From: Candidatus Crickella merdequi
Lineage (GTDB): Bacteria > Bacillota > Clostridia > Peptostreptococcales > Anaerovoracaceae
DNA: 64,000 nt
NCBI GenBank assembly: GCA_018064645.1
Contig: JAGHUT010000064.1
Coordinates: 3,965-67,964 of the forward strand
Reading direction: 5' to 3'
The first letter of the stretch is position 1; every line of letters starts with the position of its first letter. Below, one piece after another: positions 23,941 through 55,355 of this stretch. Below the pieces are notes generated by a model, which was given only the letters and a program-made list of their open reading frames with translations, did not search any database and had not been told where the DNA came from. Both the position numbers and the translations under genes were made by a program.

Positions 23941-23949
23941 GTGAAACAC

Positions 23950-24237: not shown

Positions 24238-24250
24238 GTCGGGGTAAACT

Positions 24251-24712: not shown

Positions 24713-24730
24713 AGAAAGGGGAAAGCACGA

Positions 24731-25061: not shown

Positions 25062-25090
25062 TTGCCAAGAGGTTGACTCTGTGCTAACAT
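25062..25090 (+). promoter_or_regulatory. Candidate promoter of the nif-like/hyp/hyd operon
   Basis: -35 TTGCCA (25062-25067), 17-nt spacer, extended -10 TGcTAACAT (25082-25090). Located between the rpsR terminator and the leader. Confidence 0.4.
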
Positions 25091-25125
25091 CAGTTCATCT
25101 GAGATCGAAATATCGCATTGAGGTT

Positions 25126-25210
25126 GAAGATGCCAATAGAGATAAGAGAAACGACAGGGACAACTGTCGGTATTGCGGCATCTTCCAATTGGGAAGATGT
25201 TTTTTATTTT
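25126..25210 (+). promoter_or_regulatory. Riboswitch-like leader: closing helix mutually exclusive with an intrinsic terminator
   Basis: gaagatgcc (25126-25134) pairs with ggcatcttc (25177-25185) and encloses the hairpin gacag-ggacaa-ctgtc. The same 3' strand (catcttcc, 25179-25186) pairs with ggaagatg (25192-25199), followed by ttttttatttt (25200-25210). RBS and ATG follow at 25218-25231. Confidence 0.5.
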
Positions 25211-25228
25211 ACTGAGAAGGAGACAGAT

Positions 25229-25486
25229 ATGGAAGGTTACAGAGTGGCAATTCTCGGGATCATCATCGAAGAGATGGAGTCGGTTGCAGAAGTAAATGCG
25301 GTTCTTCACGAGTTCAACGAGTACATAATCGGAAGAATGGGAATTCCATACAAAACAAGAGGAATCAACGTCATCAGCATAGCAGTAGATGCTCCATGCG
25401 ATGCGATCAATACAATGGCAGGCAAGCTGGGCAAGCTTAGCGGAGTAAGTGCGAAGGCTGTTTATTCGAAGCTTTCACATGAATAG
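25229..25486 (+). CDS. TM1266-type small ACT-like protein (family annotated as putative iron-only hydrogenase system regulator)
   Basis: 85 aa from ATG 25229 (RBS gaaggag). MEGYRVAILGIIIEE..VNAVLHEFNEYIIGRMGIPY..INTMAGKLGKLSGVSAKAVYS matches my recollection of Thermotoga TM1266. The ORF-track start at 25118 would translate through the terminator hairpin. Confidence 0.6.
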   Translation: MEGYRVAILGIIIEEMESVAEVNAVLHEFNEYIIGRMGIPYKTRGINVISIAVDAPCDAINTMAGKLGKLSGVSAKAVYSKLSHE

Positions 25487-25501
25487 GCGAGGTTGGAGAC
25501 T

Positions 25502-26248
25502 ATGAGAAAAATCGCAATTTACGGCAAGGGTGGTATCGGCAAATCGACAATATGTTCTAATGTCGCGGCTGCTCTTGCAGAAAAAGGGCTCAAAGTCATG
25601 CAGATAGGCTGCGATCCGAAGGCGGATTCTACTTATGCTCTCAGACACGGAGAGCCGCTGGCTACAGTCCTTGATACAGTGAGAGTCAAAGGCAGCAGTT
25701 TTGACCTTGATGAGGTGGTACATGAGGGCTATGCCGGAACCATCTGTGTGGAGGCAGGAGGCCCTGTGCCGGGCGTTGGATGTGCAGGCAGGGGAATTAT
25801 CACTGCCCTGGAGAAAATCGACGAGAAGGGCGTATATGACCGATACGAGCCGGATGTGATTATATATGATGTTCTTGGAGATGTAGTCTGCGGAGGCTTT
25901 TCCATGCCGATGAGAGGCGGCTACGCAGAAGAGGTGTACATTGTAACCTCTGGTGAGAACATGGCAATTTATGCAGCTGCAAATATTGCAGTGGCAATCG
26001 ATAATTTCAAGGGCAGAGGCTATGCAAAGCTTGGCGGTCTCATCCTCAACAGAAGAGATGTGAGGAACGAAGATGCCAAAGTGAAGGAGCTTTGCGAAGA
26101 CCTTAATACATCCCTTATTGGTGACATCCATAGGAGCGAAACAGTTCTGGACGCAGAGGAGAAGAAGCAGACTGTACTGGAAGCTTTTCCAGAAAGCAAT
26201 CAGGCAGAGGCGTACAGAACGCTTGCAGAGATAATCTGGAGCAGATAG
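25502..26248 (+). CDS. NifH-like (nitrogenase iron protein family) ATPase, copy 1
   Basis: [15 protein letters not shown] Walker A. Both [4Fe-4S] ligand contexts are present ([12 protein letters not shown] and [12 protein letters not shown]). ATG 25502 follows ggag. The ORF-track start at 25493 is TTG. Confidence 0.9.
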   Translation: MRKIAIYGKGGIGKSTICSNVAAALAEKGLKVMQIGCDPKADSTYALRHGEPLATVLDTVRVKGSSFDLDEVVHEGYAGTICVEAGGPVPGVGCAGRGIITALEKIDEKGVYDRYEPDVIIYDVLGDVVCGGFSMPMRGGYAEEVYIVTSGENMAIYAAANIAVAIDNFKGRGYAKLGGLILNRRDVRNEDAKVKELCEDLNTSLIGDIHRSETVLDAEEKKQTVLEAFPESNQAEAYRTLAEIIWSR

Positions 26249-26250
26249 AA

Positions 26251-28809
26251 GTGACAGAAAGAAATATTAGAACAAGTGAATATGTGACCTTAAGAGATGG
26301 AAGTTTTCCGCTTCCTTTCGCACAGCAGCTTGAATTCAGCTCGCCGGCAAGAGGAACCTTGAATATTGTTCATACAGGCAATCTTATACCGGAAAGCCAT
26401 GAGATTTTTGTCTGTGCCAAGGGTTGCCTGCGAGGAGTAGTCCTGACAGCGGCAGAGGCCGGCACCATGGGCAGATACTCAGCACTGGAGATCAAGGAGG
26501 AGAATATTCTCAACGGTGACATGGAGACAATGATGATTGAAGGTGTTTCGGACATCATCGCCAAGCTCCCTTACAGACCGAGAGCAATTCTCTTGTATAT
26601 AAGCTGTCAGCATTTCTTTATGGCATATGACAGGGAGATGGTTTTTGAGGTGCTGAAAGACAGGTTCAGGGATATTGAGTTCGCAGACTGTTACATGATT
26701 CCGACCCTTCGCAAAAGCGGCATAACCCCGGATCAGAAGATGCGGATTCAGATGTACAGCATGCTTAAGCCAGCTGTTACAGATGAGTCGCAGATTAATC
26801 TTATGGGAAGCAATCATGCCATTGTGGACAGCTGTGAAATATATACGCTTCTTGAAAAAAGAGGCATGAGTCTCACATCAATTAATGACTGTGAATCCTT
26901 CGATGAATATCTTGATCTAGCCAGGGGCCGGCTTAACATTATATATGAGCCAATAGCTCTTATGGCGGCTGAGGATATGGAGAAGCGTCTTGGAATACCG
27001 TATGTGTATCTGCCAAATGTCTACAGAGCAGATGATATTGCAGACAATTACAGGCTTCTTGGAGAGGTTCTCGGCGAGGTGCTTGATGAAGAAGAACTGG
27101 CAAGGTCCTGCGAAAAAGCGAAGCTTGCAGTCAGGGAAACACTCGCGATGGTCGGAGATTCTCCGATTGCAGTAGACTATACTTTTGGCCCTAGGCTTCT
27201 CAATCTGGCAAGATTCCTGGCAGAAGAAGGCTTTAATGTAACGGACCTCTTCGCAGACGGATTTTTCCCCGAAGAAGAGAAGGACTGGTGCTGGCTCAAG
27301 GAGAATAGACCGGATATTATACTTCATCCTACCAGCAGAGCAGCAATGCGTTACGAGAAAGATATCAATCCAGGAGCGCTGGCACTTGGACAGAAAGCGG
27401 CCTGCTTCATGGGAACAGATAATTTCGTTAATGTCGCAGAGTGCGGAGGCTTCTTCGGCTATGACGGAATAGTGCAGATAATGAAGCTTCTGCAGGAGGC
27501 CTGCAGAGTCAGTAAGGATAGAGAGGTAATTGTTCAGAAGAAGGGAACTAAAGTCAGATCTCTTCTTGATGAGGCAGACAGTCTCTGCTGCCGTGAACAG
27601 CCAGAGAAGAAACTCGAGTCGACAGGCAATAATTATACAGCTGGACTTGTACCAACTTATTCATCCGATGAATTCGGAATCTGTTCGGCCCTGTATGAAC
27701 TTGGCGGAATGGTGGTAATGCACGATGCATCTGGATGCAACTCAACATATACAACACATGATGAGCCACGATGGTACAACCAGGAGAGCATGATATACAT
27801 CTCAGCAATCTCCGAAATGGAAGCAATTATGGGAGATGATGAGAAGCTCATCAAAGACATCTGCGATGCGGCAGAAGCATTGAAGCCTGAGTTCATAGCA
27901 ATTGTAGGAGCCCCTATTCCATACATGATAGGAACAGATTTTGATGCAATTGCCAATATCCTGGAGGAAAAGCTGGGAATTCCATGCGTAGGTTTCGATG
28001 CCAACGGAATGCAGAACTACACAAAAGGCGTTGCCATGGCAACAAGAATGCTTGTGGAGAGATTCACCGAAACGCCTGTGGAAAAAACTGTGGAAAAAAC
28101 TGTGGAAATGTCACAGACGTTCACAATTAACCTCCTTGGAGCAACTCCTCTTGATTTCGCTCTCAATGGAACTGTTGCTTCAATAAAGGAGTGGGCGAAG
28201 GAACATCAAATGGCTGTAAAGTGCAGTTTTTCAATGGATTCAAGCCTTGAAGAGATTAAAGAAGCAGCTTCAGCCGATGCAAATCTTGTTCTTACGTACG
28301 GTGGTCTGGCGGCAGCTAAACTGATGAAAAGCAAATTCGGCATACCATATACCTGTGGAGTACCATGTGGAAAACTTGGTGATAATCTTGCAAAAGAACT
28401 TCGCGGCAGCCTCTTGTCGGCGAACACCGACGAAGCAAAAGGCGCTGAAAGAATCAAAGTAGCTGTAATCGGTGAAGAGATAACAAGCCTGTCACTGGCA
28501 AGAGCTCTCGAAATTGAATACAACTTCGATGCACGAGTTCTGAGCGCAGCAGATACAGATAAGGTAATACTAAGAGAGAAGGACTATGCAGCTGAATCAG
28601 AGGATGCAATTATAAGAATCCTTGCAGAGCTGCAGCCGGCACTGGTCATTGCAGATCCGTTCTACCAGGCCATAGTGCCAAAGGAAATGGATTTCTACCC
28701 AAGACCGCACGAGGCCTTCTCGGGAAGAATATATGACGGACAGAATCAGAATCTGATCAACTGCAGTCTGAGAGAGAAGCTGTCCGGTTTGGAGAAATAC
28801 GATGCTTAA
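26251..28809 (+). CDS. Fused nitrogenase-component-1-like protein: NifD-like N-half and NifK-like C-half in one 852-aa polypeptide
   Basis: The N-half (about aa 1-430) is paralogous to 29572-30858; the shared segment is ..[14 protein letters not shown].. versus ..AAEDIAKRLEIPSI... The C-half (about aa 465-852) is paralogous to 30855-31922; the shared segment is [19 protein letters not shown] versus CDAGGCTGNVCGFDEPRWF. GTG start 2 nt after the upstream stop. Confidence 0.8.
28076..28109 (+). repeat. In-frame 12-bp tandem repeat (ctgtggaaaaaa, about 2.8 copies) encoding [10 protein letters not shown]
   Basis: Read directly: cctgtggaaaaaactgtggaaaaaactgtggaaatg. Confidence 0.9.
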
Positions 28810-29554
28810 GATAGCAGTTTACGGTAAAGGCGGAATAGGTAAATCAACAACAACAGCAAATCTCGCAGCAGCTTTTGCCAGTCTTGGCAAGAAAGTAATT
28901 CAGATTGGCTGTGATCCAAAGGCAGATTCAACAATGAACCTCCTTCACGGAAGCCCTGTTCAGTCAGTAATGGACTACATGAGAATTAATGATGATGAGC
29001 CGACAGAACTCAGTGAAATCGTCGAGGAAGGTTATGGCGGAGTGGTATGCATCGAGACAGGTGGACCTACACCGGGACTGGGATGCGCCGGCCGAGGAAT
29101 TATAACAACTTTTTCGCTTCTCGAGGACCTGGAGCTCTTCGAAACATATGAACCAGATGTTGTTCTTTACGACGTCCTTGGAGATGTAGTTTGCGGAGGC
29201 TTCGCAGCTCCTATCAGAGAGGGCTATGCAGAGAAGATTCTCATTGTTACATCAGGTGAAAAAATGGCGCTCTACGCAGCCAACAATATCTGCTCTGCGG
29301 TAAAGAATTTTGAAGACCGGGGATACGCAACGGTTCGAGGCGTAGTTCTCAACAGAAGAGCAGTAGAAAGAGAAGAAGAGAAGGTACAGGCTTTTGCAGA
29401 AGAACACGGCCTTGAGATTCTCGCAGATATTCCAAGAAGCAATGACATCATTCACTATGAGGACCAGGGAAAAACAGTTATAGAGGGAGACATTAATCTT
29501 CCTGTAAGTCAGAAGTATATTGACCTGGCAAAGAGGCTTCTTGAAGAACAATAA
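28802..29554 (+). CDS. NifH-like ATPase, copy 2
   Basis: [28 protein letters not shown] and [19 protein letters not shown] motifs. The ATG overlaps the end of the upstream gene by 8 nt. Confidence 0.9.
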
Positions 29555-29571
29555 ATCGTAAAGGTAATTAA

Positions 29572-30858
29572 ATGGACAACAAACAAGCTTATTACATCAG
29601 TGCAAAGGATCTTGCGGCGCGCGGCCTGGACAATATTCCTGACCAGCTGCAGTCCTCAAAGCACCTAATATACAGTTCGCCGGCGACTTTGTCCTTCAAC
29701 TCTCCCGGAGCGCAGGGTTTTGGTGTCAAAAGAGCAGGACTTGCTGTTCCAGGATCTGTAATGCTTCTTGTAGCTCCCGGCTGCTGCGGGCGTAATACCA
29801 CTATGCTGGCAGAGCTTGGAGACTATGCAGACAGATTCTACTATCTGCTCCAGGATGATACAGATATCATTACAGGTCGCCATCTGAACAGAATCCCGGA
29901 GGCGGTCAGGGAAGTTGTAGAGTTTCATAACCCTAAGCCAAGCTGCGTAATGATATGCATAACCTGCGTAGATGCACTTCTTGGAACAGATATGGACAGA
30001 GTCTGCCGCAAAGCATCAGCCGTTGCGGGCGTTCCGGTTCTTCCCTGCTACATGTATGCACTTACAAGGGAAGGCAGAGTGCCACCAATGACAGCTGTAA
30101 GAAAAACAGTCTATGCACTTCTTGAGAAGCGGAAGAAGAAGTCAACAACAGTTAATATTCTTGGACAGTTTGCTCCATACATGGATAACTGCGAGCTGTA
30201 TGACATTCTTCACAATCTGGGAGTAAAGAAGATTAACGAAATATCAAGATGTGCCGATTTTGAGGAATACATGGGAATGGCAGAAGCGAATTTTAACCTC
30301 GTGCTTAACCCTGAGACAAGACTTGCTGCAGAGGATATAGCGAAGCGCCTGGAGATTCCGTCAATAGAGTTAACAAGGCAGTACAGACTCGACAAGATTC
30401 ATAAGCAGTACCAGCTTCTCGGCGGAGCCCTCGGTGTAAATATTGACGACAGCAGGTGGATGAAAGAGACGGAAGAGTATATTGACGGCTTCAGGGAGAG
30501 ACACCCAGACCTGGAATTTGCCATTGGAGAGTGTCTCAATGCAGACTCTTTTGAGCTCGCCCTTGCACTTATAGGCTACGGATACAAGGTCAACGAAATT
30601 TACGGAACAGTGTCCGGTGAGAATTTCCCTTACATCCGGCAGCTTGCAAAGGTCAGCCCTGAGACAAGAATATACACTAATCTGGAGCCTACAATGCTGT
30701 ACTACGACTGCAGCGAGTGTAAGGCGGATATAACAATTGGAAAGGATGCAGAGTACTATCATCCTGATGCGCCTAATGTGCCATGGAACAGAGAAGTTCA
30801 GCCATTTGGCTACGCAGGTCTCAGAACTCTGCTTGAGGAAATAGAGGAAGCTATATGA
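29572..30858 (+). CDS. NifD/NifE-like nitrogenase-component-1-type protein (stand-alone)
   Basis: 428 aa. Cys motifs LVAPGCCGR, ICITCVDALLGTDMD and VLPCYMY. By-eye similarity to A. vinelandii NifD around NLV....(K/R)(Y/L)(G/E)IP. Confidence 0.75.
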   Translation: MDNKQAYYISAKDLAARGLDNIPDQLQSSKHLIYSSPATLSFNSPGAQGFGVKRAGLAVPGSVMLLVAPGCCGRNTTMLAELGDYADRFYYLLQDDTDIITGRHLNRIPEAVREVVEFHNPKPSCVMICITCVDALLGTDMDRVCRKASAVAGVPVLPCYMYALTREGRVPPMTAVRKTVYALLEKRKKKSTTVNILGQFAPYMDNCELYDILHNLGVKKINEISRCADFEEYMGMAEANFNLVLNPETRLAAEDIAKRLEIPSIELTRQYRLDKIHKQYQLLGGALGVNIDDSRWMKETEEYIDGFRERHPDLEFAIGECLNADSFELALALIGYGYKVNEIYGTVSGENFPYIRQLAKVSPETRIYTNLEPTMLYYDCSECKADITIGKDAEYYHPDAPNVPWNREVQPFGYAGLRTLLEEIEEAI

Positions 30859-31922
30859 AAGGTTTACTCAAAGTACTGTCGCCATTCGCACCGGACCAGT
30901 CAGGCGCAGCGGCAGTATTCTACGACATGGGATGCATAACAGTAATATGCGATGCAGGAGGATGTACAGGTAATGTGTGCGGCTTCGATGAGCCAAGATG
31001 GTTCAGGAATGCCAAGCCGATTTTCAGTGCAGGTCTTCGTGACATGGATGCCATTCTCGGACGAGATGACAGACTTGTAGACAAGCTGAGACTGGTTGCA
31101 GAGAAGACAGATGCAGATTTCGCTGCGATTATCGGAACCCCGGTTCCAGCAGTAATCGCGACGGATTTTCGCGCACTGAAGAGACTGGCTGAGAAGCGCT
31201 GCGGAATGCCGGTCGTAACCTGCGAATGTACAGGAACAAGACTGTATGATATTGGAGAAGAAGAGGCATATATGCAGCTGGTAAAAACTTTTGCAGATAC
31301 TTCTGCAGAGGCTTCCGGCAAATCGGGAATACTGGGTGTTCTTGGTGTTACTCCCCTCAATATATCCAGCATTGATGGAGATGAACTGATCCGTCAGCAT
31401 TATAAGAGTCAGGGCTATGATGAGGTTTACTGCTACGGCATGGGTGCCGGCCTTGATGAACTGAAGCTGGCCGGCTGTGCAGAGAAGAACATTGTAATTG
31501 CTCCTTCGGGTCTTAAGGCTGCACGATATCTTGAGAAGAAATTCGGAACGCCATATGAGCTGCACTACCCGCTTATGCCTGTCAATGTTGCAGAAGCAAT
31601 CAAAGGCATTGAGAATGCCAGAGTGTGCATCATTCACCAGCAGATAGCTGCAGAGGCTGTAAGGCAGCAGCTAGAGCAGAAAGGTTGTGATGTGACAGTT
31701 GCATCTTTCTTCGAAATGAAGAAGGACCTTAGAAGAGCGCAGGATGTTGCTCTCGAAACAGAAGAAGATTATCAGAAGCTCATCGAAGAAGGCGGCTTCG
31801 ATTATGTAATTGCAGACCAGCTCTTCAGAAGAGCCGTAGCTGCAGACTGCTATAAAGAGTGGATACCTATGACACATTTCGCGGTATCCGGCAAGCTTGA
31901 GGAGGCTCAATGCGCACTGTAA
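30855..31922 (+). CDS. NifK/NifN-like nitrogenase-component-1-type protein (stand-alone)
   Basis: 355 aa with an ATGA overlap to the upstream gene. VICDAGGCTGNVCGFDEPRWF and IIGTPVPAVIATDF segments are paralogous to the C-half of 26251-28809. Confidence 0.7.
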   Translation: MKGLLKVLSPFAPDQSGAAAVFYDMGCITVICDAGGCTGNVCGFDEPRWFRNAKPIFSAGLRDMDAILGRDDRLVDKLRLVAEKTDADFAAIIGTPVPAVIATDFRALKRLAEKRCGMPVVTCECTGTRLYDIGEEEAYMQLVKTFADTSAEASGKSGILGVLGVTPLNISSIDGDELIRQHYKSQGYDEVYCYGMGAGLDELKLAGCAEKNIVIAPSGLKAARYLEKKFGTPYELHYPLMPVNVAEAIKGIENARVCIIHQQIAAEAVRQQLEQKGCDVTVASFFEMKKDLRRAQDVALETEEDYQKLIEEGGFDYVIADQLFRRAVAADCYKEWIPMTHFAVSGKLEEAQCAL

Positions 31923-34240
31923 GAATCTGTGTTTATGGAATAGTGCAGGGAGTAGGCTTCAGACCTTTTGTCAGCAGACTGGCAGACAGAATCGGCATTA
32001 AAGGAAGTGTGGCAAACAGAGGATCGTATGTGGAGATTTTTGCTGCCGGCGAAGAAGAACAGCTTGATTTATTCAAGTCGCTTCTCCGGCAGGAAGCACC
32101 TGAACGTTCGGCAATACTCAAGGTTACAGAGAGAACTGTTGAGCCTGGCGGATACGAAGACTTCCAGATAATAGAAAGTGAGCACGAAGAGGGAGATATC
32201 TTTGTTTCGCCTGATATTGCCACATGCCCAAAATGCAGAAGAGAGCTTTACGACCCTAACAACCGTCGATACATGCATCCTTTTATCAACTGTACGGCAT
32301 GCGGCCCAAGGCTTACCATTCTCGATGCAATGCCGTACGACCGTCAGAGAACAAGTATGAAGGCTTTTCCGATGTGTCCCGAATGTGAGTACGAATACAC
32401 GCATGCAGAGACGCGCAGGTATGATGCTCAGCCGGTATGCTGCAATGACTGCGGCCCGGAGGTGTATATTATCGGAAGTGAAATCAGCGGCAGAGCTGCC
32501 ATCACTTATGCGAGACAGGCGATCATTGATGGTAAGATTATTGCCATCAAGGGAATTGGCGGATTCCATCTCTGCTGCGATGCGACTAACGAAGAAGCAG
32601 TTGCAAGACTGAGAACTCTCAAGCGCAGACCGGCGAAGCCTTTTGCAGTAATGGCAAGAGACCTTGAGACTGTAGAGCGAGAATGCCAGCTTCCGGGGCA
32701 GAACATCAGGGATATTCTCGATGGACATCAGAAGCCGATAATTCTTCTTAAGCGTAAAAACGACAGCAGGCTGGCTCCATCAGTAGCTCCCGACAATCCA
32801 AAGATTGGAATGATGCTGCCTTACGCACCGGTACAGATGCTGCTTTTTGACTACAACGACGGCCTTGAGATGACAACAGACTGTTTCGTTATGACAAGCG
32901 GCAATGTCAGCGGAGCGCCAATCTGCAGAACAGACGAGGACGCAATTAAGGAGCTGTCTGGCTTCTGCGATATAATGCTTTCGCATAACAGAACCATAAG
33001 GCTTCGCGCTGATGATTCCGTAATGGATATCTACCGCGGTGAGCCATACATGATAAGGCGTTCAAGAGGCTATGCGCCACTGCCTGTGATGACAGAGCAG
33101 AATGTCAGAGGAAGCGTGCTTGCTGTAGGAGGAGAGCTTAAGAACACCTTCTGCATCGGCAAGGATCAGCTTCTCTACGAGTCGCCATATGTTGGTGATA
33201 TGGAGGATCTGCGCACAGTGCAGGCTCTTGAGGAATCGATAAAAAGAATGGCGGAGCTGCTCGAGACGTCACCGACAATTGTGGCGTGCGATCTTCATCC
33301 GAAGTACAATACTGGTTTTGTGGCTGAGAGACAGGGGCTTCCTGTTATGAAACTTCAGCATCATTATGCTCATATTCTGTCATGTATGGCGGAGAACGAT
33401 TACAGTGATAGAGTAATAGGACTTTCTCTTGATGGAACTGGCTACGGAACAGACGGAACTATCTGGGGCGGAGAACTGCTCTCCTGCGACCTTGATGGCT
33501 TCGAAAGAATTGGCTGTATAGAAGCTTTCGACCAGGTCGGCGGTGATGCTTCAGCAAAAGAAGGCTGGAGAATAGCGGCTTCAATGATCAACTCCATATA
33601 CGGAGAGGAAGCTTCGGAGGTAGTGACGAAGCTCGGCCTTTGCGATGAGAACGCCAGAGCTCTTATTGCAAGAATGGCTGAAAGAGGTATAAACACCGTA
33701 AAGTCCACAAGCGCGGGAAGACTCTTTGACGCTGTCAGCGCAATTCTGGGTGTTCGAAAGAGCTCAAGCTTCGAAGGCGAAGCTGCAACAACTCTTATGT
33801 TCAGAGCCCAGGCCTTCGCAGAGACAGCTGAAGCACTGCCGGAGGTACCTTCGTTCTGCGGAATAGCCCTTGAGGATTTCTGCAATATAAGAACGACGGA
33901 GCTGGTTCGATACCTTATCGAAGAGAAACTCAAAATTCAGGATGAAGAGGGCAATCTGAGCATAGAAGAACAGGGAAGACTAGCCTATGTTTTTCATGAA
34001 GCCTTTGCCGAGATGTGCGCAGAAGCAGCAATCTGGGCATGCAGCAGAGAAGAAATAGCGACTGCAGCGCTCTCCGGAGGAGTTTTCCAGAACACACTTC
34101 TCCTGGAAGGAGTTGAATCGCGACTTGAGAATAATGGAATCAAAGTATTGAGGCATCATATGATTCCGCCTAATGATGGAGGCATTGCCCTCGGTCAGGC
34201 GGCAGCAGCGATGCATAAGATAAACAGGGAGGACAAGTGA
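31910..34240 (+). CDS. hypF: Carbamoyltransferase HypF
   Basis: 776 aa. Acylphosphatase domain (VYGIVQGVGFRPFV). Two Zn-finger pairs (CPKCRRELYDPNNRRYMHPFINCTACGPR; CPECEYEYTHAETRRYDAQPVCCNDCGP). YrdC-like and Kae1-like C-terminal domains. RBS gaggagg. Confidence 0.92.
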   Translation: MRTVRICVYGIVQGVGFRPFVSRLADRIGIKGSVANRGSYVEIFAAGEEEQLDLFKSLLRQEAPERSAILKVTERTVEPGGYEDFQIIESEHEEGDIFVSPDIATCPKCRRELYDPNNRRYMHPFINCTACGPRLTILDAMPYDRQRTSMKAFPMCPECEYEYTHAETRRYDAQPVCCNDCGPEVYIIGSEISGRAAITYARQAIIDGKIIAIKGIGGFHLCCDATNEEAVARLRTLKRRPAKPFAVMARDLETVERECQLPGQNIRDILDGHQKPIILLKRKNDSRLAPSVAPDNPKIGMMLPYAPVQMLLFDYNDGLEMTTDCFVMTSGNVSGAPICRTDEDAIKELSGFCDIMLSHNRTIRLRADDSVMDIYRGEPYMIRRSRGYAPLPVMTEQNVRGSVLAVGGELKNTFCIGKDQLLYESPYVGDMEDLRTVQALEESIKRMAELLETSPTIVACDLHPKYNTGFVAERQGLPVMKLQHHYAHILSCMAENDYSDRVIGLSLDGTGYGTDGTIWGGELLSCDLDGFERIGCIEAFDQVGGDASAKEGWRIAASMINSIYGEEASEVVTKLGLCDENARALIARMAERGINTVKSTSAGRLFDAVSAILGVRKSSSFEGEAATTLMFRAQAFAETAEALPEVPSFCGIALEDFCNIRTTELVRYLIEEKLKIQDEEGNLSIEEQGRLAYVFHEAFAEMCAEAAIWACSREEIATAALSGGVFQNTLLLEGVESRLENNGIKVLRHHMIPPNDGGIALGQAAAAMHKINREDK

Positions 34241-34241
34241 T

Positions 34242-34448
34242 ATGTGCGTAGGATTAGCGGCTAAAGTAGTAGGAATCAAGGATGGCGTTGCTGTTGTTGA
34301 TGCATCAGGCGCAAAGAGAGAGGTGGCTGCAGAGCTCATCGAGGAGCTTGAGCCAGGCGATTTCGTAATGGTTCATGCAGGCATTGCCATCGCAAAGATT
34401 ACTGCAGATGATACAGAAGAGACAGATGAACTGATGGAGATGCTTTAA
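34242..34448 (+). CDS. hypC: HypC/HybG/HupF-family hydrogenase maturation chaperone
   Basis: 68 aa with the N-terminal MCVG motif (essential Cys2) and the typical DFVMVHAGIAI segment. Confidence 0.85.
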   Translation: MCVGLAAKVVGIKDGVAVVDASGAKREVAAELIEELEPGDFVMVHAGIAIAKITADDTEETDELMEML

Positions 34449-35491
34449 TGGAAGAGAAGAAACTTACAGCACGTGAGATCATCGAGAGCTACGATGGTCC
34501 GAAGCTTAGAATAATGGAGGTGTGCGGAACGCATACGCATGAGATTTTTCGCCTTGGAATCAGAAGTCTGCTCCCAGAGAATGTTGAGCTGATTTCCGGA
34601 CCGGGCTGCCCTGTTTGCGTAACGCCTGTAGGCTTCATTGATATGGCCCTTCAGCTGGCCCTCGAGAAGGAGTGCGTAATCTGTACTTTTGGAGACCTTA
34701 TCAGAGTTCCGGGTTCAGAGATGAGTCTTGCTGACGCGAGAGCTAAGGGTGCAGTTGTAAAAATCGTATATACTGCTACAGACGCTCTCGACTATGCGAA
34801 GGAGAATCCTGATAAGCAGGTGGTTTTCCTGTCTGTCGGTTTCGAGACAACAACTCCTGGAAGCTGTCTGGCAGTTAAGAAGGCTAAGGAAGAAGGGGTT
34901 CAGAACTTCTCGATTCTTACTGCCAACAAGACAATGCCTAATGCATATCAGGCACTTAAGGGAAGCGCAGATGCGTTCCTCTATCCAGGACATGTTAACG
35001 CAATCACAGGAGAGGATGACTGCCGCAAGCTGGCCGAAGAAGGAGTATCAGGCGTAATCGCCGGTTTTACCGCCAAGGAACTTCTGACAGCCCTTGCAGT
35101 GACAATAAGAAAATGCCAGCAGGGCGAGCCTTTCTTCGTTAACTGCTATCCAAGGGTAGTTACTGAAAAGGGAAACATCCCTTCAAAGAAAATTATCGAA
35201 GAGATTATGGAGCCATGCGATTCAATCTGGAGAGGCCTTGGAAACATTTCGATGTCAGGTCTGAAGCTTAGAGAAGAGTACGCCGCGTTCGATGCACAGC
35301 GGAAGTTCGACATTCCTGAGACAGAGGGAACACCTAATCCTGGATGCCGCTGCGGTGAGGTTCTTCAGGGCAAGTGCAAGCCTGCAGATTGCCCTCTGTT
35401 CGGCAAGGTATGCACACCGCTTCATCCGGTAGGTGCATGTATGGTATCAAATGAAGGTTCCTGCTCTGCGTACTATCAGTACCAGATGTAG
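34448..35491 (+). CDS. hypD: Hydrogenase maturation Fe-S protein HypD
   Basis: CGTHTHEI, GPGCPVCVTP, GFETT and PGHVNAITG motifs, plus the C-terminal Cys cluster CRCGEVLQGKCKPADCPLFGKVCTPLHPVGACMVSNEGSC. Confidence 0.92.
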   Translation: MEEKKLTAREIIESYDGPKLRIMEVCGTHTHEIFRLGIRSLLPENVELISGPGCPVCVTPVGFIDMALQLALEKECVICTFGDLIRVPGSEMSLADARAKGAVVKIVYTATDALDYAKENPDKQVVFLSVGFETTTPGSCLAVKKAKEEGVQNFSILTANKTMPNAYQALKGSADAFLYPGHVNAITGEDDCRKLAEEGVSGVIAGFTAKELLTALAVTIRKCQQGEPFFVNCYPRVVTEKGNIPSKKIIEEIMEPCDSIWRGLGNISMSGLKLREEYAAFDAQRKFDIPETEGTPNPGCRCGEVLQGKCKPADCPLFGKVCTPLHPVGACMVSNEGSCSAYYQYQM

Positions 35492-35511
35492 ACGATATAG
35501 GAGAGAGTATT

Positions 35512-36516
35512 ATGAGTGAATATGTTAAGCTGGCCCACGGTGCCGGCGGCAAGCAGACATCAGAGCTGATTGAAAAAGTCTTCAAGGCGCATTTTGCTAA
35601 TCCTGAGTTTACTGCTGACGATGCAGCAGTACTGAATGTTGGAGATGGAAGAATCGCTATGTCGACAGATGGTTTTATCGTGTCGCCATTCGAGTTCCCG
35701 GGCGGCAACATCGGCAAACTTTCTATTTGCGGAACGGTAAATGACCTGGCATGCATGGGAGCACAGCCTCTTTATATGACCTGTGCTTTCGTAATAGAGG
35801 AAGGTTTTCCTCTTGAGAAGCTGGAGATGATTGCAGCTTCAATGGAGAAGACCGCTGCAGAGGTTGGTGTTAAGATTGTTGCCGGCGATACTAAGGTTGC
35901 AGGCAAGGGACAGGTAGACAATGTCTTCATAACAACAACAGGCGTAGGCAGGCTGACTGAGGGCTTTGCTACTTCAGGAGCTTTTGCCAAGCCTGGTGAC
36001 AAAATCATCGTTACAGGTGATGTAGGCCGTCATGGCTGCACAATCCTTCTTGAGAGAGAAGATCTGGGAATTGAGGCAGATATCAAGAGTGACTGTGCGC
36101 CTCTCTGGAACACAGTTAAAGCGATGATGGATGCAACTTCAGACATCCACGTAATAAGAGATGCTACAAGAGGCGGTGTTGGTACTGTCCTTTATGAAAT
36201 TGCGGCTGAGAGCAATGTTGGTGTAAGGCTTGAAGCTACACAGGTTCCAGTTGATCCAGCTGTTGCAGGTGTATGTGGAATGCTGGGCCTTGACCCGCTC
36301 TATCTTGCCAACGAGGGAACAATGGTTGTTATTGCTCCAGCAGAGTCTGCAGACAAGGTGCTCGAGGCACTTCGCGGCGACAAGTATGGACAGAAGGCGG
36401 CTGTTATTGGCGAGATTACAGATGTAATGCCGGGAAGCGTAGTAGTAAGAACAGAGATTGGAACAGAGACACTTCTTCCACAGCCAGGAGGAGAGCTCCT
36501 TCCAAGAATCTGCTAA
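35512..36516 (+). CDS. hypE: Carbamoyl dehydratase HypE
   Basis: 334 aa with a PurM-like fold, an N-terminal LAHGAGGK segment and the invariant C-terminal PRIC motif. Confidence 0.92.
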   Translation: MSEYVKLAHGAGGKQTSELIEKVFKAHFANPEFTADDAAVLNVGDGRIAMSTDGFIVSPFEFPGGNIGKLSICGTVNDLACMGAQPLYMTCAFVIEEGFPLEKLEMIAASMEKTAAEVGVKIVAGDTKVAGKGQVDNVFITTTGVGRLTEGFATSGAFAKPGDKIIVTGDVGRHGCTILLEREDLGIEADIKSDCAPLWNTVKAMMDATSDIHVIRDATRGGVGTVLYEIAAESNVGVRLEATQVPVDPAVAGVCGMLGLDPLYLANEGTMVVIAPAESADKVLEALRGDKYGQKAAVIGEITDVMPGSVVVRTEIGTETLLPQPGGELLPRIC

Positions 36517-36526
36517 GGTAGACATA

Positions 36527-37582
36527 ATGACTGATTTATATAAGCTTGTTGACAAGCTGGAAGAGGAGAAAGAACTTTCCCTTGAGGAATGGACAAGGCT
36601 CATCGAAGGGCAGTCCTCTGAGATAAGTGAATATGTTTTTTCCAAGGCACGCAAGGCACGCGAACCCTTTTACGGCCACGAAGTGTATGTGCGAGGTCTT
36701 ATCGAGATAAGTAACATCTGCAGAAATGACTGCATCTACTGCGGTATTCGCTGCAGCAATGTCAAAGTGAATCGATACAGACTGACGAAGGAGGAGATCC
36801 TTTCCTGCTGCAGATCCGGCTGGGAAATGGGCTTCAGGACTTTTGTCATGCAGGGCGGCGAGGATCCATATTACACCGACGAGGTGCTTTGCGATATTAT
36901 CGCTGCGATTCGCGAGGAGTTCCCGGAGTGTGCAATAACCCTTTCTGTTGGAGAGCGCTCTAAAGAGAGCTATCGCAAACTTAAGGAGGCGGGTGCAGAG
37001 CGTTACCTTCTGAGGCACGAGACGGCAAATGAAGAGCACTATAGAATGCTGCATCCAGAGAACCTGAGTCTTGCTGTCCGCAAAGAGTGCCTTTTCAATC
37101 TGCGCGAGCTGGGCTACCAGGTGGGAGCAGGGTTCATGGTTGGTGCACCATATCAGACGGCGAGGCATCTTGCGGAGGATATGATTTTCCTTAAAGAGCT
37201 TAATCCTGCTATGGTTGGAATCGGACCATTCATTCCGCATCATGATACGCCTTTTGCAGATATGAAGGCAGGCACCCTTGAGCAGACAATATACCTGCTC
37301 GGGCTCATAAGACTGATGCTTCCAAAAGTTCTTCTTCCAGCGACAACAGCTCTTGGAACAAGTGATCCTCTGGGCCGCGAGAAGGGAATGGAGGCAGGTG
37401 CCAATGTAGTAATGCCGAATCTTTCACCGACAGAAGTCCGCAAGGACTACCTGCTGTACGACAACAAAATCTGCGTGAACGAAGAGGCCGCCGAGAACCT
37501 CAGGAGTCTGAAGGCTCGTATGGAGGCTATCGGATACATGGTTGTATGCGACCGCGGCGATTCAAAGAATATGGAGAACTAA
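36527..37582 (+). CDS. hydE: [FeFe]-hydrogenase H-cluster radical-SAM maturase HydE
   Basis: Radical-SAM CRNDCIYCGIR motif in a BioB-like fold, with the HydE-typical segments MQGGEDPYY and AMVGIGPFIPHHDTPF. ATG 36527 avoids overlap with hypE; the ORF-track start is 36458. Confidence 0.85.
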   Translation: MTDLYKLVDKLEEEKELSLEEWTRLIEGQSSEISEYVFSKARKAREPFYGHEVYVRGLIEISNICRNDCIYCGIRCSNVKVNRYRLTKEEILSCCRSGWEMGFRTFVMQGGEDPYYTDEVLCDIIAAIREEFPECAITLSVGERSKESYRKLKEAGAERYLLRHETANEEHYRMLHPENLSLAVRKECLFNLRELGYQVGAGFMVGAPYQTARHLAEDMIFLKELNPAMVGIGPFIPHHDTPFADMKAGTLEQTIYLLGLIRLMLPKVLLPATTALGTSDPLGREKGMEAGANVVMPNLSPTEVRKDYLLYDNKICVNEEAAENLRSLKARMEAIGYMVVCDRGDSKNMEN

Positions 37583-38785
37583 ATGAGTATGAACAACACG
37601 CCAAGTGGCGAAAGAATACATATCGGATTATTCGGCAAGCGCAACGCCGGCAAATCGAGCCTCGTCAATGCTCTGACAGGACAGAGCCTTGCCATCGTTT
37701 CGGATGTGCTGGGAACAACAACGGATCCTGTGCTCAAGGCAATGGAGCTTCTGCCGCTCGGTCCGGTTGTAATGATAGATACACCGGGCCTCGATGACGA
37801 AGGTGAGCTGGGGGAGCTGCGTATTCGTAAGGCGTATCAGATGCTGAACAAGTCGGATATCGCGCTTCTCGTAGTTGATGCTGCCTGCGGAATGACTGCT
37901 GAGGATAATGCAATTCTTGAGAGAATCCTCGGCAAAAATCTTCCTTATGTCGTAGTATTCAACAAGTGCGATGCTATCGATGAAGAAAGACGCTTCGCAT
38001 TGTCGGAAGAGCTGGGTGAGAAGAAACATATTTTTGTAAGCGCAGCCGACAGAGAGGGAATATATGAACTTAAAGAACTCATAGGTCACCTGATCCCTTC
38101 CGAATCGGAGAGGGTTCTGATTAGAGATATAATTGACCCATCCGACATAATCGTTCTTGTTGTACCTATTGATAAGGCGGCGCCTAAGGGAAGGCTTATC
38201 CTGCCGCAGCAGATGGTTATCAGAGATATTCTTGATGCAGATGCTGTTGCAGTAGTTGCCAAGGAGGATGAGCTGTCATCTGTACTTGCCAGAATCGGCG
38301 AAAAACCGAAACTGGTAGTAACAGATAGTCAGGTTTTCGGCAGAGTGTCGAAGGATACTCCAGCGGATATCTATCTTACGTCTTTTTCCATCCTGATGGC
38401 TCGTTATAAAGGCGACCTGGAGCTGGTTGTTGAGGGAGCACATCAGCTTGACCAGCTTGACGATGGGGACACAATTCTCATCGCAGAGGGATGCACTCAT
38501 CACAGACAGTGCGGCGACATCGGAACAGAGAAACTGCCGGCATGGATTCTTAAGCATAGCGGCAAGAATGTAAAGTTCGAGTTCGTAAGCGGAACGGAAT
38601 TCCCTGACGATCTTAGTAAATACAGACTGATCGTTCACTGCGGCGCATGCACCCTCAACGAGAAGGAGATGCAGTATCGCCAGAAGTGCGCCGTTGACGC
38701 AGGAATTCCAATTACAAATTATGGAACAGCAATCGCACATATGAATGGAATTCTCAAGAGAAGTCTGGAGATTTTCTGCAAATAG
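37583..38785 (+). CDS. hydF: [FeFe]-hydrogenase maturation GTPase/scaffold HydF
   Basis: GTPase P-loop GKRNAGKSSLVNALTG and DTPG. C-terminal cluster motif EGCTHH...VHCGACTLN (CxHx(n)HCxxC). Confidence 0.9.
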   Translation: MSMNNTPSGERIHIGLFGKRNAGKSSLVNALTGQSLAIVSDVLGTTTDPVLKAMELLPLGPVVMIDTPGLDDEGELGELRIRKAYQMLNKSDIALLVVDAACGMTAEDNAILERILGKNLPYVVVFNKCDAIDEERRFALSEELGEKKHIFVSAADREGIYELKELIGHLIPSESERVLIRDIIDPSDIIVLVVPIDKAAPKGRLILPQQMVIRDILDADAVAVVAKEDELSSVLARIGEKPKLVVTDSQVFGRVSKDTPADIYLTSFSILMARYKGDLELVVEGAHQLDQLDDGDTILIAEGCTHHRQCGDIGTEKLPAWILKHSGKNVKFEFVSGTEFPDDLSKYRLIVHCGACTLNEKEMQYRQKCAVDAGIPITNYGTAIAHMNGILKRSLEIFCK

Positions 38786-38851: not shown

Positions 38852-39526
38852 TTAGAGAATCTCTTCCTCCATCTTGCATGTCCAGCCCATATCCCAGAAC
38901 ATGTACTCGTACTGAGTGCATGCGTACACGATGTGCTTGAGGTGCTGATACTGCTCCTCGCTGCAGCCCTCGCTGTAACGGTCGAACATGTCAATCATGA
39001 GGTCGTTAGCTGAACGGTACTCATCTCCCATATACTGGTTAATCCAGAGGCCGTAGAACTCCTGCTCCTTAGCGCCAGGGAATGTCTCAAGATAATCTCC
39101 GATGAGTTTGTATGTCCATGAGCAGGCAAGTACAGCAGCCATAATTGCATCCATACCCTCTTTCTGAGCGATGGAAATCATATAGTTGGTATATGACTCT
39201 GTTACGATGCTAGGCTCTGCAGCAGCAAGCTCCTCGTTGGTGAGACCAAGTCTCTTGAGGTACGTCTTGTGAATTGCATTCTCAACATCAAGAGTTGCAG
39301 TGATAAGACCTGCAAAAAGTCTCTGGTCAACTTCGCTCTGTGCTTTGATAACACCCATTGCGAACACCTTTGAGTACTGCATAAGATAGAGGTGATCCTG
39401 TGTGATGTAGAACTTGAAGTTCTCCTTAGGAAGAGTTCCATCAGCCATTCCCTGTACGAACGGATGAGTGTTATTCTTCTCCCAGTAAGCAATCATGTCA
39501 TTGTAAAGACGCTCGGAGTTTTTCAT
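38852..39526 (-). CDS. tenA: Aminopyrimidine aminohydrolase / thiaminase II
   Basis: 224 aa. ..HPFVQGMADGTLPKENFKFYITQDHLYL.. is typical TenA. Last gene of the THI-box-controlled yko operon. Confidence 0.85.
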   Translation of the reverse strand: MKNSERLYNDMIAYWEKNNTHPFVQGMADGTLPKENFKFYITQDHLYLMQYSKVFAMGVIKAQSEVDQRLFAGLITATLDVENAIHKTYLKRLGLTNEELAAAEPSIVTESYTNYMISIAQKEGMDAIMAAVLACSWTYKLIGDYLETFPGAKEQEFYGLWINQYMGDEYRSANDLMIDMFDRYSEGCSEEQYQHLKHIVYACTQYEYMFWDMGWTCKMEEEIL

Positions 39527-39546
39527 GATACAAATCCTTTCTTAAT

Positions 39547-44486: not shown

Positions 44487-44996
44487 ATGATTAAGCAGAT
44501 TCCGGAGATGAAGAACAGAATGATTAAAGGCTGCGTTGTCGACTGCGGCGGCGCTTGTGGTGACTGCACCCGTACAGGAGAGCCGCTTGACCTGAAGGGA
44601 ACACTCTACTTCGCTACGGGCGAGATAGATGCATCCGAAATCGAAGCGGCAGACAGAATCTACGTTATCGTTTCCGATGGAATAGATGAGGATACAGAAG
44701 AGGCATTTGCTGCAATAAGGGAGAAATTCGGCGACAAGGCATACTGCTTCGCCGCAGGCGAATACCCTCTTGACAAAAGCCGTCTTTTCTCAAGAATGGC
44801 AGAACTCAAGGACGAGGAAAACATTTTTGTCAGACCAATTGCCTGTGCCGGCTTCGAGGGGCTGCGCCACGTGGTGAATAGCGGAACTTGTCCGGCACCA
44901 GACGATAATTCAGCAATATACGTCTGGGCCTTGAATGGAGAAGAACCGTCATCGGAAGAGTTCCTTACGTATTATGAGATGGGAAAACGCAGCTAG
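44487..44996 (+). CDS. Hypothetical Cys-rich acidic protein
   Basis: 169 aa with N-terminal GCVVDCGGACGDC. I recognise no family. The 3' end overlaps the convergent hydrogenase gene by 32 nt. Confidence 0.5.
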   Translation: MIKQIPEMKNRMIKGCVVDCGGACGDCTRTGEPLDLKGTLYFATGEIDASEIEAADRIYVIVSDGIDEDTEEAFAAIREKFGDKAYCFAAGEYPLDKSRLFSRMAELKDEENIFVRPIACAGFEGLRHVVNSGTCPAPDDNSAIYVWALNGEEPSSEEFLTYYEMGKRS

Positions 44997-46407
44997 CCAC
45001 ATTCTCTTTAATTGAGGTATGGGATGCTTCTGCAGCATGTTCATCTGTTCTGTTTGCGTTTTTGTCGATTTTGCGCAGACAGCCGGCTCCGCGAATGCAG
45101 CCGCCGTCACATGCCATGCCTTCAATGTAATTCTCGTTTAGAACACCCTTGCTCGCCTTGAGCAGGGTTGTTTTTATTTGTGAAAGACCTGTTGTTGATA
45201 TTGCGTTAACTTCAAAATCACTTTCTCTTTCCTCGAGAGATCTCTGAAGAGCGCCGATAACACCGCCGGCATGGGCAAAGCGTCGGCCATATCCTGTAGC
45301 TTCGTCAAGAGGTGTCTCCTCAAGGTTCTGAACAACAATGTCTCTGCTGTCAAAAAGAGCAGCAAGTTCTTCAAAGGTCAGCACTGAATCAACGAAAGGC
45401 GCTGCCTTGTCCAGTTTGATCTCAGCCTTCTTGGCAGTACAAGGTCCAATGAAGACAACCTTCGCATCGGGATTATTCTGCTTAATAAGCTTTCCGGTGA
45501 CAACCATCGGTGAAGGCATCTCGGACATTTTGTCTGCAAGATTTGGATGCTTCTGCTCAACATAGGTGACAAAAGCAGGGCAGCAGGAGCTGAGAAGTTC
45601 ACCTTTTTCCTCAATCTCGATTGATTCTTCGTATGCTACGATGTCGGCTCCGTAAGCAGCCTCGTGAACCTCTGCGAAACCCAGCTGATGAAGTGCAGTG
45701 ATTGTCTGTCCGTAACTTGCTGGAGGACACTGGGATGCAATGGCCGGAGCAAGAACGGCAACGACCGGATATTTACTGTTGTTCTCGCTGTCAAGAATCA
45801 TTCTGATAACATCAGAAATAAAAGACTTATCTACAGCCGCGCCGAAAGGACATCTTGAAACGCATGCACCGCAGTGAGTGCATTTTTCCTCTGTGATAAC
45901 AGCCTCACCAGTCTTTGCCATGTGAATAGCGCCTGGAACACAGGCAGTCTCGCATGGTCTCTTGAAATTATGAATAGCAGTGTAAGGGCAGGCCTTAGCA
46001 CACTGGCCGCACTCTACACATTTGCTCTTATCAATCTTCGCACGATTCTCAGGCGTGTATGTAATGGCGCCGAGCCTGCAAGCACCTTCACAGGCGTGAG
46101 CCAGGCAGCCACGGCACAGATCTGTAACAACATGACCAGCTTCAGGACACTCATCGCAGATGAGCGAAATAACTTCAATTACATTGTTGTTGGCACGATT
46201 GCCGCCAAGAGCCAGCTTAATTCTTTCAGCCAGCTTAGCCCTGTCCTTATAGATGCAGCAGCTTCTCAGAGGGGCATCCTCTTTGATAATTACTGAAGCA
46301 ATCTCATCGAATACAGTAAAAACCTGAGTGCCTTCCCACAGACATTTTGCAACCTCACGAAGAACCTCATTCTTTACGACCTGTACATTAGAATCGAAAC
46401 GTCTCAT
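44965..46407 (-). CDS. [FeFe] hydrogenase-family protein, monomeric group-B-like (two ferredoxin-type 4Fe-4S motifs + H-domain)
   Basis: 480 aa. CVECGQCAKACP and CTHCGACVSRCP motifs. H-cluster motifs SSCCPAF (L1), IGPCTAKKAE (L2) and EGMACDGGCIRGAG (L3, lacking the group-A GGGQP tail). Confidence 0.8.
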   Translation of the reverse strand: MRRFDSNVQVVKNEVLREVAKCLWEGTQVFTVFDEIASVIIKEDAPLRSCCIYKDRAKLAERIKLALGGNRANNNVIEVISLICDECPEAGHVVTDLCRGCLAHACEGACRLGAITYTPENRAKIDKSKCVECGQCAKACPYTAIHNFKRPCETACVPGAIHMAKTGEAVITEEKCTHCGACVSRCPFGAAVDKSFISDVIRMILDSENNSKYPVVAVLAPAIASQCPPASYGQTITALHQLGFAEVHEAAYGADIVAYEESIEIEEKGELLSSCCPAFVTYVEQKHPNLADKMSEMPSPMVVTGKLIKQNNPDAKVVFIGPCTAKKAEIKLDKAAPFVDSVLTFEELAALFDSRDIVVQNLEETPLDEATGYGRRFAHAGGVIGALQRSLEERESDFEVNAISTTGLSQIKTTLLKASKGVLNENYIEGMACDGGCIRGAGCLRKIDKNANRTDEHAAEASHTSIKENVASCVFPSHNT

Positions 46408-53091: not shown

Positions 53092-53112
53092 CGTTGTGCA
53101 GTTTAATAAAAA

Positions 53113-53860: not shown

Positions 53861-53878
53861 TTAAGGAGGTCTGTAATA

Positions 53879-55328: not shown

Positions 55329-55355
55329 TTTTATAAGATAGAAGGGACAGAAGAC

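Follow-up and report, generated by a model that had tools for sequence, protein, structure and literature searches.

The 64-kb window examined here, the whole stretch of a contig from Candidatus Crickella merdequi (Clostridia) that was analyzed, carries on its forward strand 12 genes (25229–38785) that form one tightly packed operon, with gaps of 20 bp or less and overlaps at four gene pairs. Nif, Hyp, and Hyd, the three great maturation systems for gas-processing metalloenzymes, are all represented in this one conserved operon. We tentatively propose that it specifies a conserved accessory metallocofactor-assembly system that is tied into maturation of the H-cluster of [FeFe] hydrogenases, and that it is not a degraded hydEFG operon. 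The genes are listed here in operon order together with the families or structures that identify them; A and B denote two modules that are delimited below by comparison with related loci.

25229..25486 (+): TM1266-family small ACT/NikR_C-like protein, 85 aa (TIGR03959, PF21699, PDB 2NZC)
25493..26248 (+): NifH-like ATPase/reductase 1, module A (PF00142)
26251..28809 (+): fused NifD'-NifK'-like protein, 852 aa, module A (PF00148, two stretches)
28802..29554 (+): NifH-like ATPase/reductase 2, module B (Pfam/NCBIfam)
29572..30858 (+): NifD/NifE-like subunit, 428 aa, module B (PF00148)
30855..31922 (+): NifK/NifN-like subunit, 355 aa, module B (PF00148)
31910..34240 (+): HypF carbamoyltransferase (TIGR00143)
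34242..34448 (+): HypC (TIGR00074)
34448..35491 (+): HypD (TIGR00075)
35512..36516 (+): HypE (TIGR02124)
36527..37582 (+): HydE radical S-adenosylmethionine (SAM) maturase (TIGR03956)
37583..38785 (+): HydF GTPase scaffold (TIGR03918)

The hyd-related proteins of the operon are readily assigned to their families. HydE scored 573.6 bits on TIGR03956 (cut-off 254.6) and has the radical-SAM CX3CX2C motif in the form CRNDCIYC; its longest open reading frame (ORF) begins at a TTG at 36458, and the ATG at 36527 lies 10 nt past the HypE stop codon. The optional C-terminal CX7CX2C auxiliary-cluster motif, which acetogen HydEs have, is not present in the HydE of the window. HydF scored 567.4 bits on TIGR03918 (cut-off 325.55), matches the Pfam HydF_dimer and HydF_tetramer models, and contains a CxHx45HCxxC motif that fits the family pattern CxHx(44–53)HCxxC. 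The TM1266-family protein scored 111.2 bits on TIGR03959 (cut-off 60.8) and matched PDB 2NZC with an E value of 5.6e-11. The longest ORF for this protein (25118–25486, 122 aa) overlaps the leader and terminator that are described later. Because the family domain begins at residue 42 and the ATG at 25229 has a good ribosome-binding site, preceded by GAGAAGGAGA, the 122-aa ORF appears to be too long, and the true start is probably the ATG at 25229, giving 85 aa, and not 25118.

HydG, a ThiH-like member of the radical-SAM proteins that is about 470 aa long and has a C-terminal CX2CX22C motif, is not encoded in the window. On the HydG model (TIGR03955), the only cross-match in the 64 kb is HydE, with 82.7 bits against a cut-off of 312; the only CX3CX2C-containing ORF of suitable size in the window is also HydE; and a TBLASTN search of the window with six genuine HydG proteins returned HydE as its sole match, at ~25% identity. 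The hydE and hydF genes are contiguous (36527–38785) with no hydG between them. The initial annotation had described the locus as hydE-hydF with a TM1266-type regulator and without HydG, and family scores, motif scan, and TBLASTN all agree with this description. It had also placed Nif-like and Hyp genes in the roughly 11 kb between TM1266 and hydE, which is likewise correct (25493–36516, 11.0 kb). The window consequently has no contiguous canonical TM1266-hydE-hydG-hydF operon, hydG being absent and TM1266 and hydE being 11 kb apart. That canonical arrangement, which the annotation had given as the usual context of TM1266, does exist: we found it in C. tetanomorphum and in many gut metagenome contigs, among the loci L085 and L096–L161.

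All four Hyp proteins score above equivalog or subfamily cut-offs and have intact catalytic motifs. HypF reached 738 bits on TIGR00143 (cut-off 466) and contains all of its Pfam domains (acylphosphatase, zf-HYPF, YrdC, and Kae1-like), HypC reached 61.3 bits on TIGR00074 (cut-off 48) and begins Met-Cys, HypD reached 409.7 bits on TIGR00075 (cut-off 192.8) and contains the motifs CGTHTHE, GPGCPVCV, and GFETT, and HypE reached 425.5 bits on TIGR02124 (cut-off 251.6) and has the C-terminal motif PRIC. Among the window ORFs at 23–63 kb, no HypA, HypB, endopeptidase, or large or small subunit of a NiFe hydrogenase was found; a CobW-like GTPase at 62088 scored 25.8 bits on the HypB model, under its cut-off of 121. 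HypA, HypB, and NiFe genes are also neither recurrent nor adjacent in 78 related loci. In these loci, HypFCDE directly follows the NifK-like gene in every case that reaches that far (69 of 78), and in the window the stop codon of the NifK/N-like gene overlaps the HypF start.

The nitrogenase-like proteins reach none of the curated family cut-offs. NifH-like 1 (297.6 bits on PF00142) and NifH-like 2 are 52% identical to each other, and both have the GKGGIGKS P-loop together with the pair of [4Fe-4S] cysteines (numbered Cys97 and Cys132 in A. vinelandii), which places them in the NifH/BchL/CfbC superfamily. Their scores are below the cut-offs for nifH (TIGR01287; 330.1 and 311.4 bits, cut-off 394.35) and for CfbC (NF033200; 324.3 and 304.2 bits, cut-off 402). 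The P-loop and Cys97/Cys133 of NifH-like 1 are kept in 98% of 60 sequences, and the P-loop and Cys95/Cys131 of NifH-like 2 in 99% of 71 sequences. None of the D/K-type proteins passed a cut-off for NifD, NifK, NifE, NifN, BchB, or CfbD, the top scores being those on NifE (102.8, 69.1, and 41.9 bits against 505). The highest of these belongs to the fused NifD'K'-like protein, which corresponds to two separate genes in most relatives and has the NifEN fusion and NifD as its best matches in PDB (E value about 1e-9). A profile of the 428-aa NifD/E-like subunit is also distantly related to NifE and NifD in PDB (E value about 4e-13), and this subunit has five invariant cysteines (C71, C72, C129, C132, and C145). 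It is the one subunit for which the position of the cofactor ligand NifE-Cys250/NifD-Cys275 was aligned, and it has no Cys there: its consensus N-P-E aligns with the C-S-K stretch of NifE, and the region is without a conserved Cys. The NifK/N-like subunit has a conserved C32/C37/C42 motif.

Scanning one genome per species with a profile of the NifD/E-like protein, we identified relatives in 542 species genomes, mostly from Lachnospiraceae, Oscillospiraceae, and Clostridiaceae and including C. ljungdahlii, C. ragsdalei, C. carboxidivorans, C. drakei, Anaerostipes, and Dorea. The best 80 of these 542 relatives were used for locus comparisons, and ORFs were clustered over 78 loci. The comparisons reveal two modules. 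Module B consists of NifH2, the NifD-like gene, and the NifK-like gene followed by HypF-C-D-E, and module A consists of NifH1, NifD', and NifK', headed by TM1266 or, in other species, by HydF in place of TM1266. Among the best 80 loci the modules are found either way round, and in the type II loci TM1266 lies in the middle of the cluster, after HypE. Since the two modules recur in either order across loci, the Nif-like/Hyp genes do not form an insert within a hyd operon. They make up an autonomous, widespread cluster of two modules, with TM1266 as a member of the NifH1-NifD'K' module rather than of hydEF. The initial annotation had located the block at the place expected for HydG, and the reading that it replaces HydG on this account is not supported: the cluster is autonomous, often has no hyd neighbor, and includes TM1266 as a part of its module A. 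Two contigs assigned to other phyla, one labeled Barnesiella intestinihominis (Bacteroidota, L077) and one Flexilinea sp. (Chloroflexota, L070), closely resemble the Clostridia loci L062 and L064 in gene order and leader sequence; they are probably mis-binned and not true occurrences outside Bacillota. About 3 kb 5′ of the cluster in C. ljungdahlii ERI-2 (L051 4520–6095) there is an array of clustered regularly interspaced short palindromic repeats with 24 repeats (Rfam CRISPR-DR2).

Outside the core of the cluster, all-against-all clustering of the ORFs from the 78 loci found only HydF (21 of 78) and HydE to be recurrent, every other family being present in nine loci or fewer. Flanks of 2.5 kb or more on either side are available for 19 clusters, and HydE or HydF abuts nine of these, six times at a distance of no more than 75 bp; adjacency cannot be judged for many type II loci, which end too soon. 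The junctions between HydE/HydF and the core take at least seven architectures. They include cluster-HydE-HydF (the window and L060), cluster-HydF (L003, L056, L064, L069, and L077), cluster-HydE (L014, L029, L039, and L046), HydF-NifH1 onward (L016–L031, L048, and L072), and HydE-HydF-cluster (L058). The metagenome contigs L137, L147, L151, and L140 have the order NifD-NifK-HypFCDE-NifD'-NifK'-NifH-HydF, in which the NifH-like gene comes after D'K' and directly before HydF. Another contig (L165 1434–11227, Ga0163159_1000086) encodes, in order, TM1266, a FecCD permease, an ATP-binding cassette (ABC) ATPase, HydE, NifH1, NifD', NifK', Peripla_BP_2, and HydF, that is, module A alone with an iron-chelate-type ABC importer and with no Hyp genes or module B in the locus.

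As a control, we scanned metagenome contigs and took those with the closest HydF relatives found there; 61 loci had enough sequence upstream of HydF to be judged. HydG lies beside HydF in 22 of these, many of which have the full TM1266-hydE-hydG-hydF arrangement, whereas HydF is alone in 26; eight loci have hydE-hydF with neither hydG nor a Nif-like gene within 10 kb, and five are Nif-linked and add two further architectures. Phylogenetic analysis of HydF placed the Nif-linked HydFs in scattered positions among those from canonical operons, and the clade with the window HydF is the sister of a clade from TM1266-E-G-F operons. The tree thus rules out that the cluster-linked HydF is a separate paralogue and indicates that an ordinary orthologue was recruited next to the cluster repeatedly and independently. 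As the movement of an ordinary HydF to the side of the cluster on many occasions is strong evidence of a functional link, a connection between the Nif-like/Hyp cluster and H-cluster maturation is well supported by gene neighborhood. A further small Nif-family protein beside a hyd maturase was seen in Thermoanaerobacterium thermosaccharolyticum (CP002171), where a solitary hydG is followed by a 118-aa Nitro_FeMo-Co (NifX/NifB-C-terminal-like) protein (L084 8597–8953).

The genes rpsF-ssb-rpsR (23941–24976) lie directly 5′ of the operon region, and the rpsR terminator is followed by three putative expression signals.

25062..25090 (+): promoter-like site TTGCCA-17-TAACAT, a consensus match only, just 5′ of the leader
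25095..25136 (+): conserved structured leader RNA, ~41 nt (covariance model R2)
25177..25210 (+): intrinsic-terminator-like hairpin with T-run, a putative attenuator, between the leader and TM1266

The leader folds as a three-segment hairpin (UCU-GA-N4-AAGG-loop-CCU-GA-N4'-GAAGA, also written UCU-GA-N4-AA(U/G)-loop-(A/C)UU-GA-N4'-GAAGA) with GA-containing internal loops, and the copy in the window scored 31.9 bits on R2 with a folding z of −3.67. Over the 1.43 Mb of cluster loci, R2 matched 53 times, once per locus and never elsewhere, and all 53 matches are on the cluster strand and 5′ of the first cluster gene, be that TM1266, NifH2, or HydF. The element is thus shared with 52 related loci (e.g., L063 9093–9133 and L020 3711–3751); a −10 box is located 7–9 nt before the motif in related loci. 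The middle helix (N4:N4') covaries although it is outside the R2 model: one of its pairs is CG in 34 cases, GU in 9, GC in 5, AU in 2, and unpaired in one, and the covariation score is 0.40 compared with 0.17 for shuffles and 0.05–0.20 for slid controls. A terminator-like hairpin is found 3′ of 46 of the 53 leaders. No Rfam family matches the leader, and no known riboswitch was found upstream of the cluster. We also considered a general antiterminator pairing between the 3′ end of the leader and the 5′ arm of the terminator; it extends over 9 nt in the window but was rejected, as the value over 46 leaders is 5.74 against 5.48 for shuffled sequences. The leader is a candidate riboswitch or protein-binding attenuator, with TM1266 as a conceivable ligand protein, and separately a candidate for a new class of cis-regulatory RNA. 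Leaders of canonical TM1266-hydEGF operons are similar in that YUGA-N3-5-RAAR units are about ten-fold enriched, complementary N4 segments are present in A5, and a terminator follows. The sequence-only type I model R1 gave no significant detection of these canonical leaders. The Nif-only structural model R3 found just one of them, weakly (L161, 16.8 bits), and a regulon common to the Nif-cluster and canonical hydEGF operons is therefore plausible only in a tentative sense.

From the gene content, the intact catalytic motifs, the conservation, the repeated independent linkage to HydF, HydE, and TM1266, and the leader that we observe here, we infer the whole of the chemistry, and where its product goes, as follows. 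HypF and HypE would make cyanide from carbamoyl phosphate, and HypC/HypD would hold an iron that takes up CN and CO. The NifH-like ATPases would push very low-potential electrons into the NifEN-like scaffolds, and these would reduce or assemble the Fe-CN/CO unit, for instance through conversion of CO2 to CO or reduction of the iron. The product would join the path from HydE through HydF to the hydrogenase and supplement the HydG route, with HydG itself most likely encoded elsewhere in the genome, and the structured 5′ leader and then the terminator would control expression. We put the probability that the operon is such an accessory system in H-cluster maturation at roughly 45%, and the same figure holds for cooperation, in which the cluster feeds or assists the HydE/HydF path and HydG is encoded at another place in the genome, as its best-supported form. 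Several points weigh against this. Many clusters have no hyd gene alongside (e.g., those of C. ljungdahlii and C. carboxidivorans), with many such loci ending less than 1.2 kb past the cluster, and no hydrogenase structural gene recurs next to the cluster in related loci. Members of the C. ljungdahlii group have no Hyp set other than the Nif-linked HypCDEF, which could simply be there for their group 1a NiFe hydrogenase. HypCD is known to make Fe(CN)2(CO), whereas HydE acts on Fe(Cys)(CO)2(CN), and the weak result with R3 belongs here as well.

The annotation had suggested that the cluster either substitutes for HydG or cooperates with it. The functional tie of the Nif-like/Hyp genes to HydE, HydF, and TM1266 stands, but substitution is not supported, and we consider it improbable that the genome is without HydG and that HypFCDE and the Nif-like proteins supply all Fe-CO/CN units for HydE and HydF. 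In favor of such a replacement, neither the window nor the 10 kb around the cluster in any of the 80 loci contains HydG, in spite of the presence of its usual partners TM1266, HydE, and HydF; compared with the control loci (22 of 61), HydG is beside HydF in none of the 23 Nif-linked loci, although these represent only about seven independent events. In L165, moreover, NifH1-D'-K' occupies the slot between HydE and HydF that is held by HydG in the canonical order. The idea also stays alive because a survey did not find canonical HydG in five acetogens that carry the cluster (C. ljungdahlii, C. ragsdalei, C. coskatii, C. sp. AWRP, and C. carboxidivorans; PMC9431212), and no thiH-type gene was reported in C. 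autoethanogenum or C. ljungdahlii (PMC6505512); all of these acetogens carry the Nif-linked HypCDEF. However, the former survey matched motifs against annotated proteins and includes candidates termed "atypical HydG", and it reports canonical HydG for C. drakei, with CX2CX22C at residues 386–412, and likewise for C. scatologenes (PMC9431212 Table S7). C. drakei is a carrier of the Nif-like/Hyp cluster (L065). The eight control loci with hydE-hydF but neither hydG nor a nearby Nif-like gene also count against replacement, and hyd maturase genes are often scattered in genomes. The similarity of the window HydE to HydEs from canonical E-G-F operons (60–70%) equals that to cluster-linked HydEs (58–70%); it shows no divergence that would hint at a new substrate, and its equal proximity to both sets argues for the usual one. 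Protein searches with a T. italicus HydG fragment, which was rebuilt from a PDB alignment reached via E. coli ThiH, returned no protein that could be traced to a carrier genome among the best 120 matches. Equally doubtful is a fully HydG-independent route to the H-cluster, in which HypF/HypE cyanide from carbamoyl phosphate and CO from the ATP-driven Nif-like modules would be built into an Fe-CO/CN unit on the NifEN-like scaffolds and converted by HydE/HydF to the 2Fe subcluster, with the leader RNA as the regulator of the pathway; if true, it would mean that [NiFe] and [FeFe] maturation have merged through relatives of nitrogenase.

Two other explanations dispense with delivery to the [FeFe] hydrogenase. 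The system might make a new cofactor of its own, with module A as a nitrogenase-like enzyme that bears a CN/CO-containing cluster and with module B, HypFCDE, and, if present, HydE/HydF as the assembly line, as NifEN is for NifDK, so that the Nif-like enzyme would keep the product. We regard this as unlikely, with several points in its favor: two paralogous Nif-like sets per operon recall the scaffold-plus-enzyme logic of NifEN and NifDK, the D-like subunit of module B is nearest to NifE, a conserved hydrogenase neighbor is absent in the related loci, and module A is found in L165 next to a FecCD-type ABC transporter without module B or Hyp genes nearby. However, the linked HydFs are ordinary orthologues, and the only known role of HydF is delivery of the 2Fe unit to HydA. 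The cofactor ligand of NifD/NifE is not kept at the Cys position that was aligned for the 428-aa subunit, and canonical hyd maturation operons have a similar TM1266 and a similar leader. It is very unlikely that there is no tie to [FeFe] maturation at all, i.e., that HypFCDE serves a NiFe hydrogenase encoded elsewhere, that the Nif-like proteins act as reductases on something unrelated, and that hydE and hydF are nearby through iron or redox co-regulation or by chance. Other nitrogenase-like enzymes do use tetrapyrroles or organosulfur compounds. Clostridium acetogens also possess a NiFe hydrogenase of group 1a, for which the C. ljungdahlii group has no second Hyp set; C. carboxidivorans, on the other hand, has a separate HypCDE+HypAB set next to its NiFe hydrogenase (PMC9431212), which makes the Nif-linked Hyp genes look like an additional set, distinct from it. 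The joining of HypFCDE to the NifK-like gene in all 69 loci that extend far enough, the consistent lack of adjacent HypA, HypB, and NiFe genes, the adjacency of HydF/HydE in at least seven architectures as the sole recurrent association, and the single leader that heads the whole block including hydE and hydF all speak against this explanation. Cooperation with the HydE/HydF path remains our preferred reading.

Beyond the operon, the window contains a hydrogenase that may be its client.

44965..46407 (−): Group B [FeFe] hydrogenase (TIGR04105, 489.6 bits, cut-off 450)

The score upholds the group B assignment made in the initial annotation. The gene is 6 kb 3′ of the operon on the opposite strand and is a possible client, not a conserved neighbor. 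Thiamine salvage genes flank the operon on both sides and have no relation to the Nif-like/Hyp/hyd question: TenA and an energy-coupling factor (ECF)-type transporter (CbiQ, a double ABC ATPase, and an S component) are encoded at 38852–42363 (−), and a thiamine pyrophosphate riboswitch (53104–53210, 66.7 bits) followed by thiW-thiM-thiE-thiD is located at 53104–56159 (+).

The operon is spread over hundreds of species that range from gut Lachnospiraceae to industrial syngas acetogens, and several of the carriers are genetically tractable, making direct testing feasible. If the link to H-cluster maturation is real, the cluster would provide a new step in, or a new route to, Fe-CO/CN cofactors, with bearing on the question of where CO comes from in anaerobic Hyp chemistry, on the reported lack of canonical HydG finds among acetogens of the C. 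ljungdahlii type, and on the heterologous production of hydrogenases.

In the library searched, a literature search for a characterized Nif-like/Hyp/Hyd system or for natural HydG-less organisms returned only a remark from 2012 and the acetogen survey from 2022, with no characterization of the cluster after that remark. The former is a one-sentence mention of what is almost certainly the same cluster, for which a role in assembling an active-site metallocluster was suggested (Dos Santos et al. 2012; PMC3464626); the module structure, the link to HydE, HydF, and TM1266, the HydG question, and the leader are not part of that remark. Compared with the canonical TM1266-hydE-hydG-hydF operon, the window has full-scoring HydE, HydF, and TM1266 proteins, an order of TM1266 through hydE-hydF that echoes the canonical one, and a leader and terminator that precede both operons; it differs in the lack of HydG, in the 11 kb of Nif-like and Hyp genes between TM1266 and hydE, and in that TM1266 of the cluster relatives travels with NifH1 and not with hydE/F. 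The HypCDEF proteins share with those of [NiFe] hydrogenases the HypC Cys2, the HypD CGxHxH and GPGCPVC motifs, the HypE PRIC motif, and all HypF domains, whereas, in the window ORFs and related loci surveyed above, they are not accompanied by HypA, HypB, an endopeptidase, or NiFe subunits and are translationally coupled to a NifK-like gene. The likeness to NifH plus NifEN consists in NifE as the top-scoring family and best solved structure for the D-like subunits, in Fe-protein-like partners that have the P-loop and both cluster cysteines, and in the combination of a D/K-type heteromeric pair with an ATPase; the scores, however, are far under the cut-offs (NifE 69–103 vs. 505 bits), an equivalent of Cys250/Cys275 and an adjacent NifB are lacking, the Cys patterns are different (C71/C72 and C129/C132, and C32/C37/C42 in the K-like subunit), and there are two sets per operon, one of them fused in the window. 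With CfbCD of F430 synthesis, the dark-operative protochlorophyllide oxidoreductase BchLNB, and methylthio-alkane reductase, the cluster shares an ATP-dependent NifH-like reductase and a NifD/K-like component without ligands for the iron-molybdenum cofactor. CfbC is also the second-best model for both NifH-like proteins, but at 324 and 304 against 402 bits, and the CfbD and BchB scores (34–55 bits) are far under their cut-offs; the Hyp and Hyd gene context matches none of these three systems. The parts of the cluster thus belong to known families and their combination is not a described system; we class it as a nitrogenase-like system, for assembly or for reduction, whose functional context is new.

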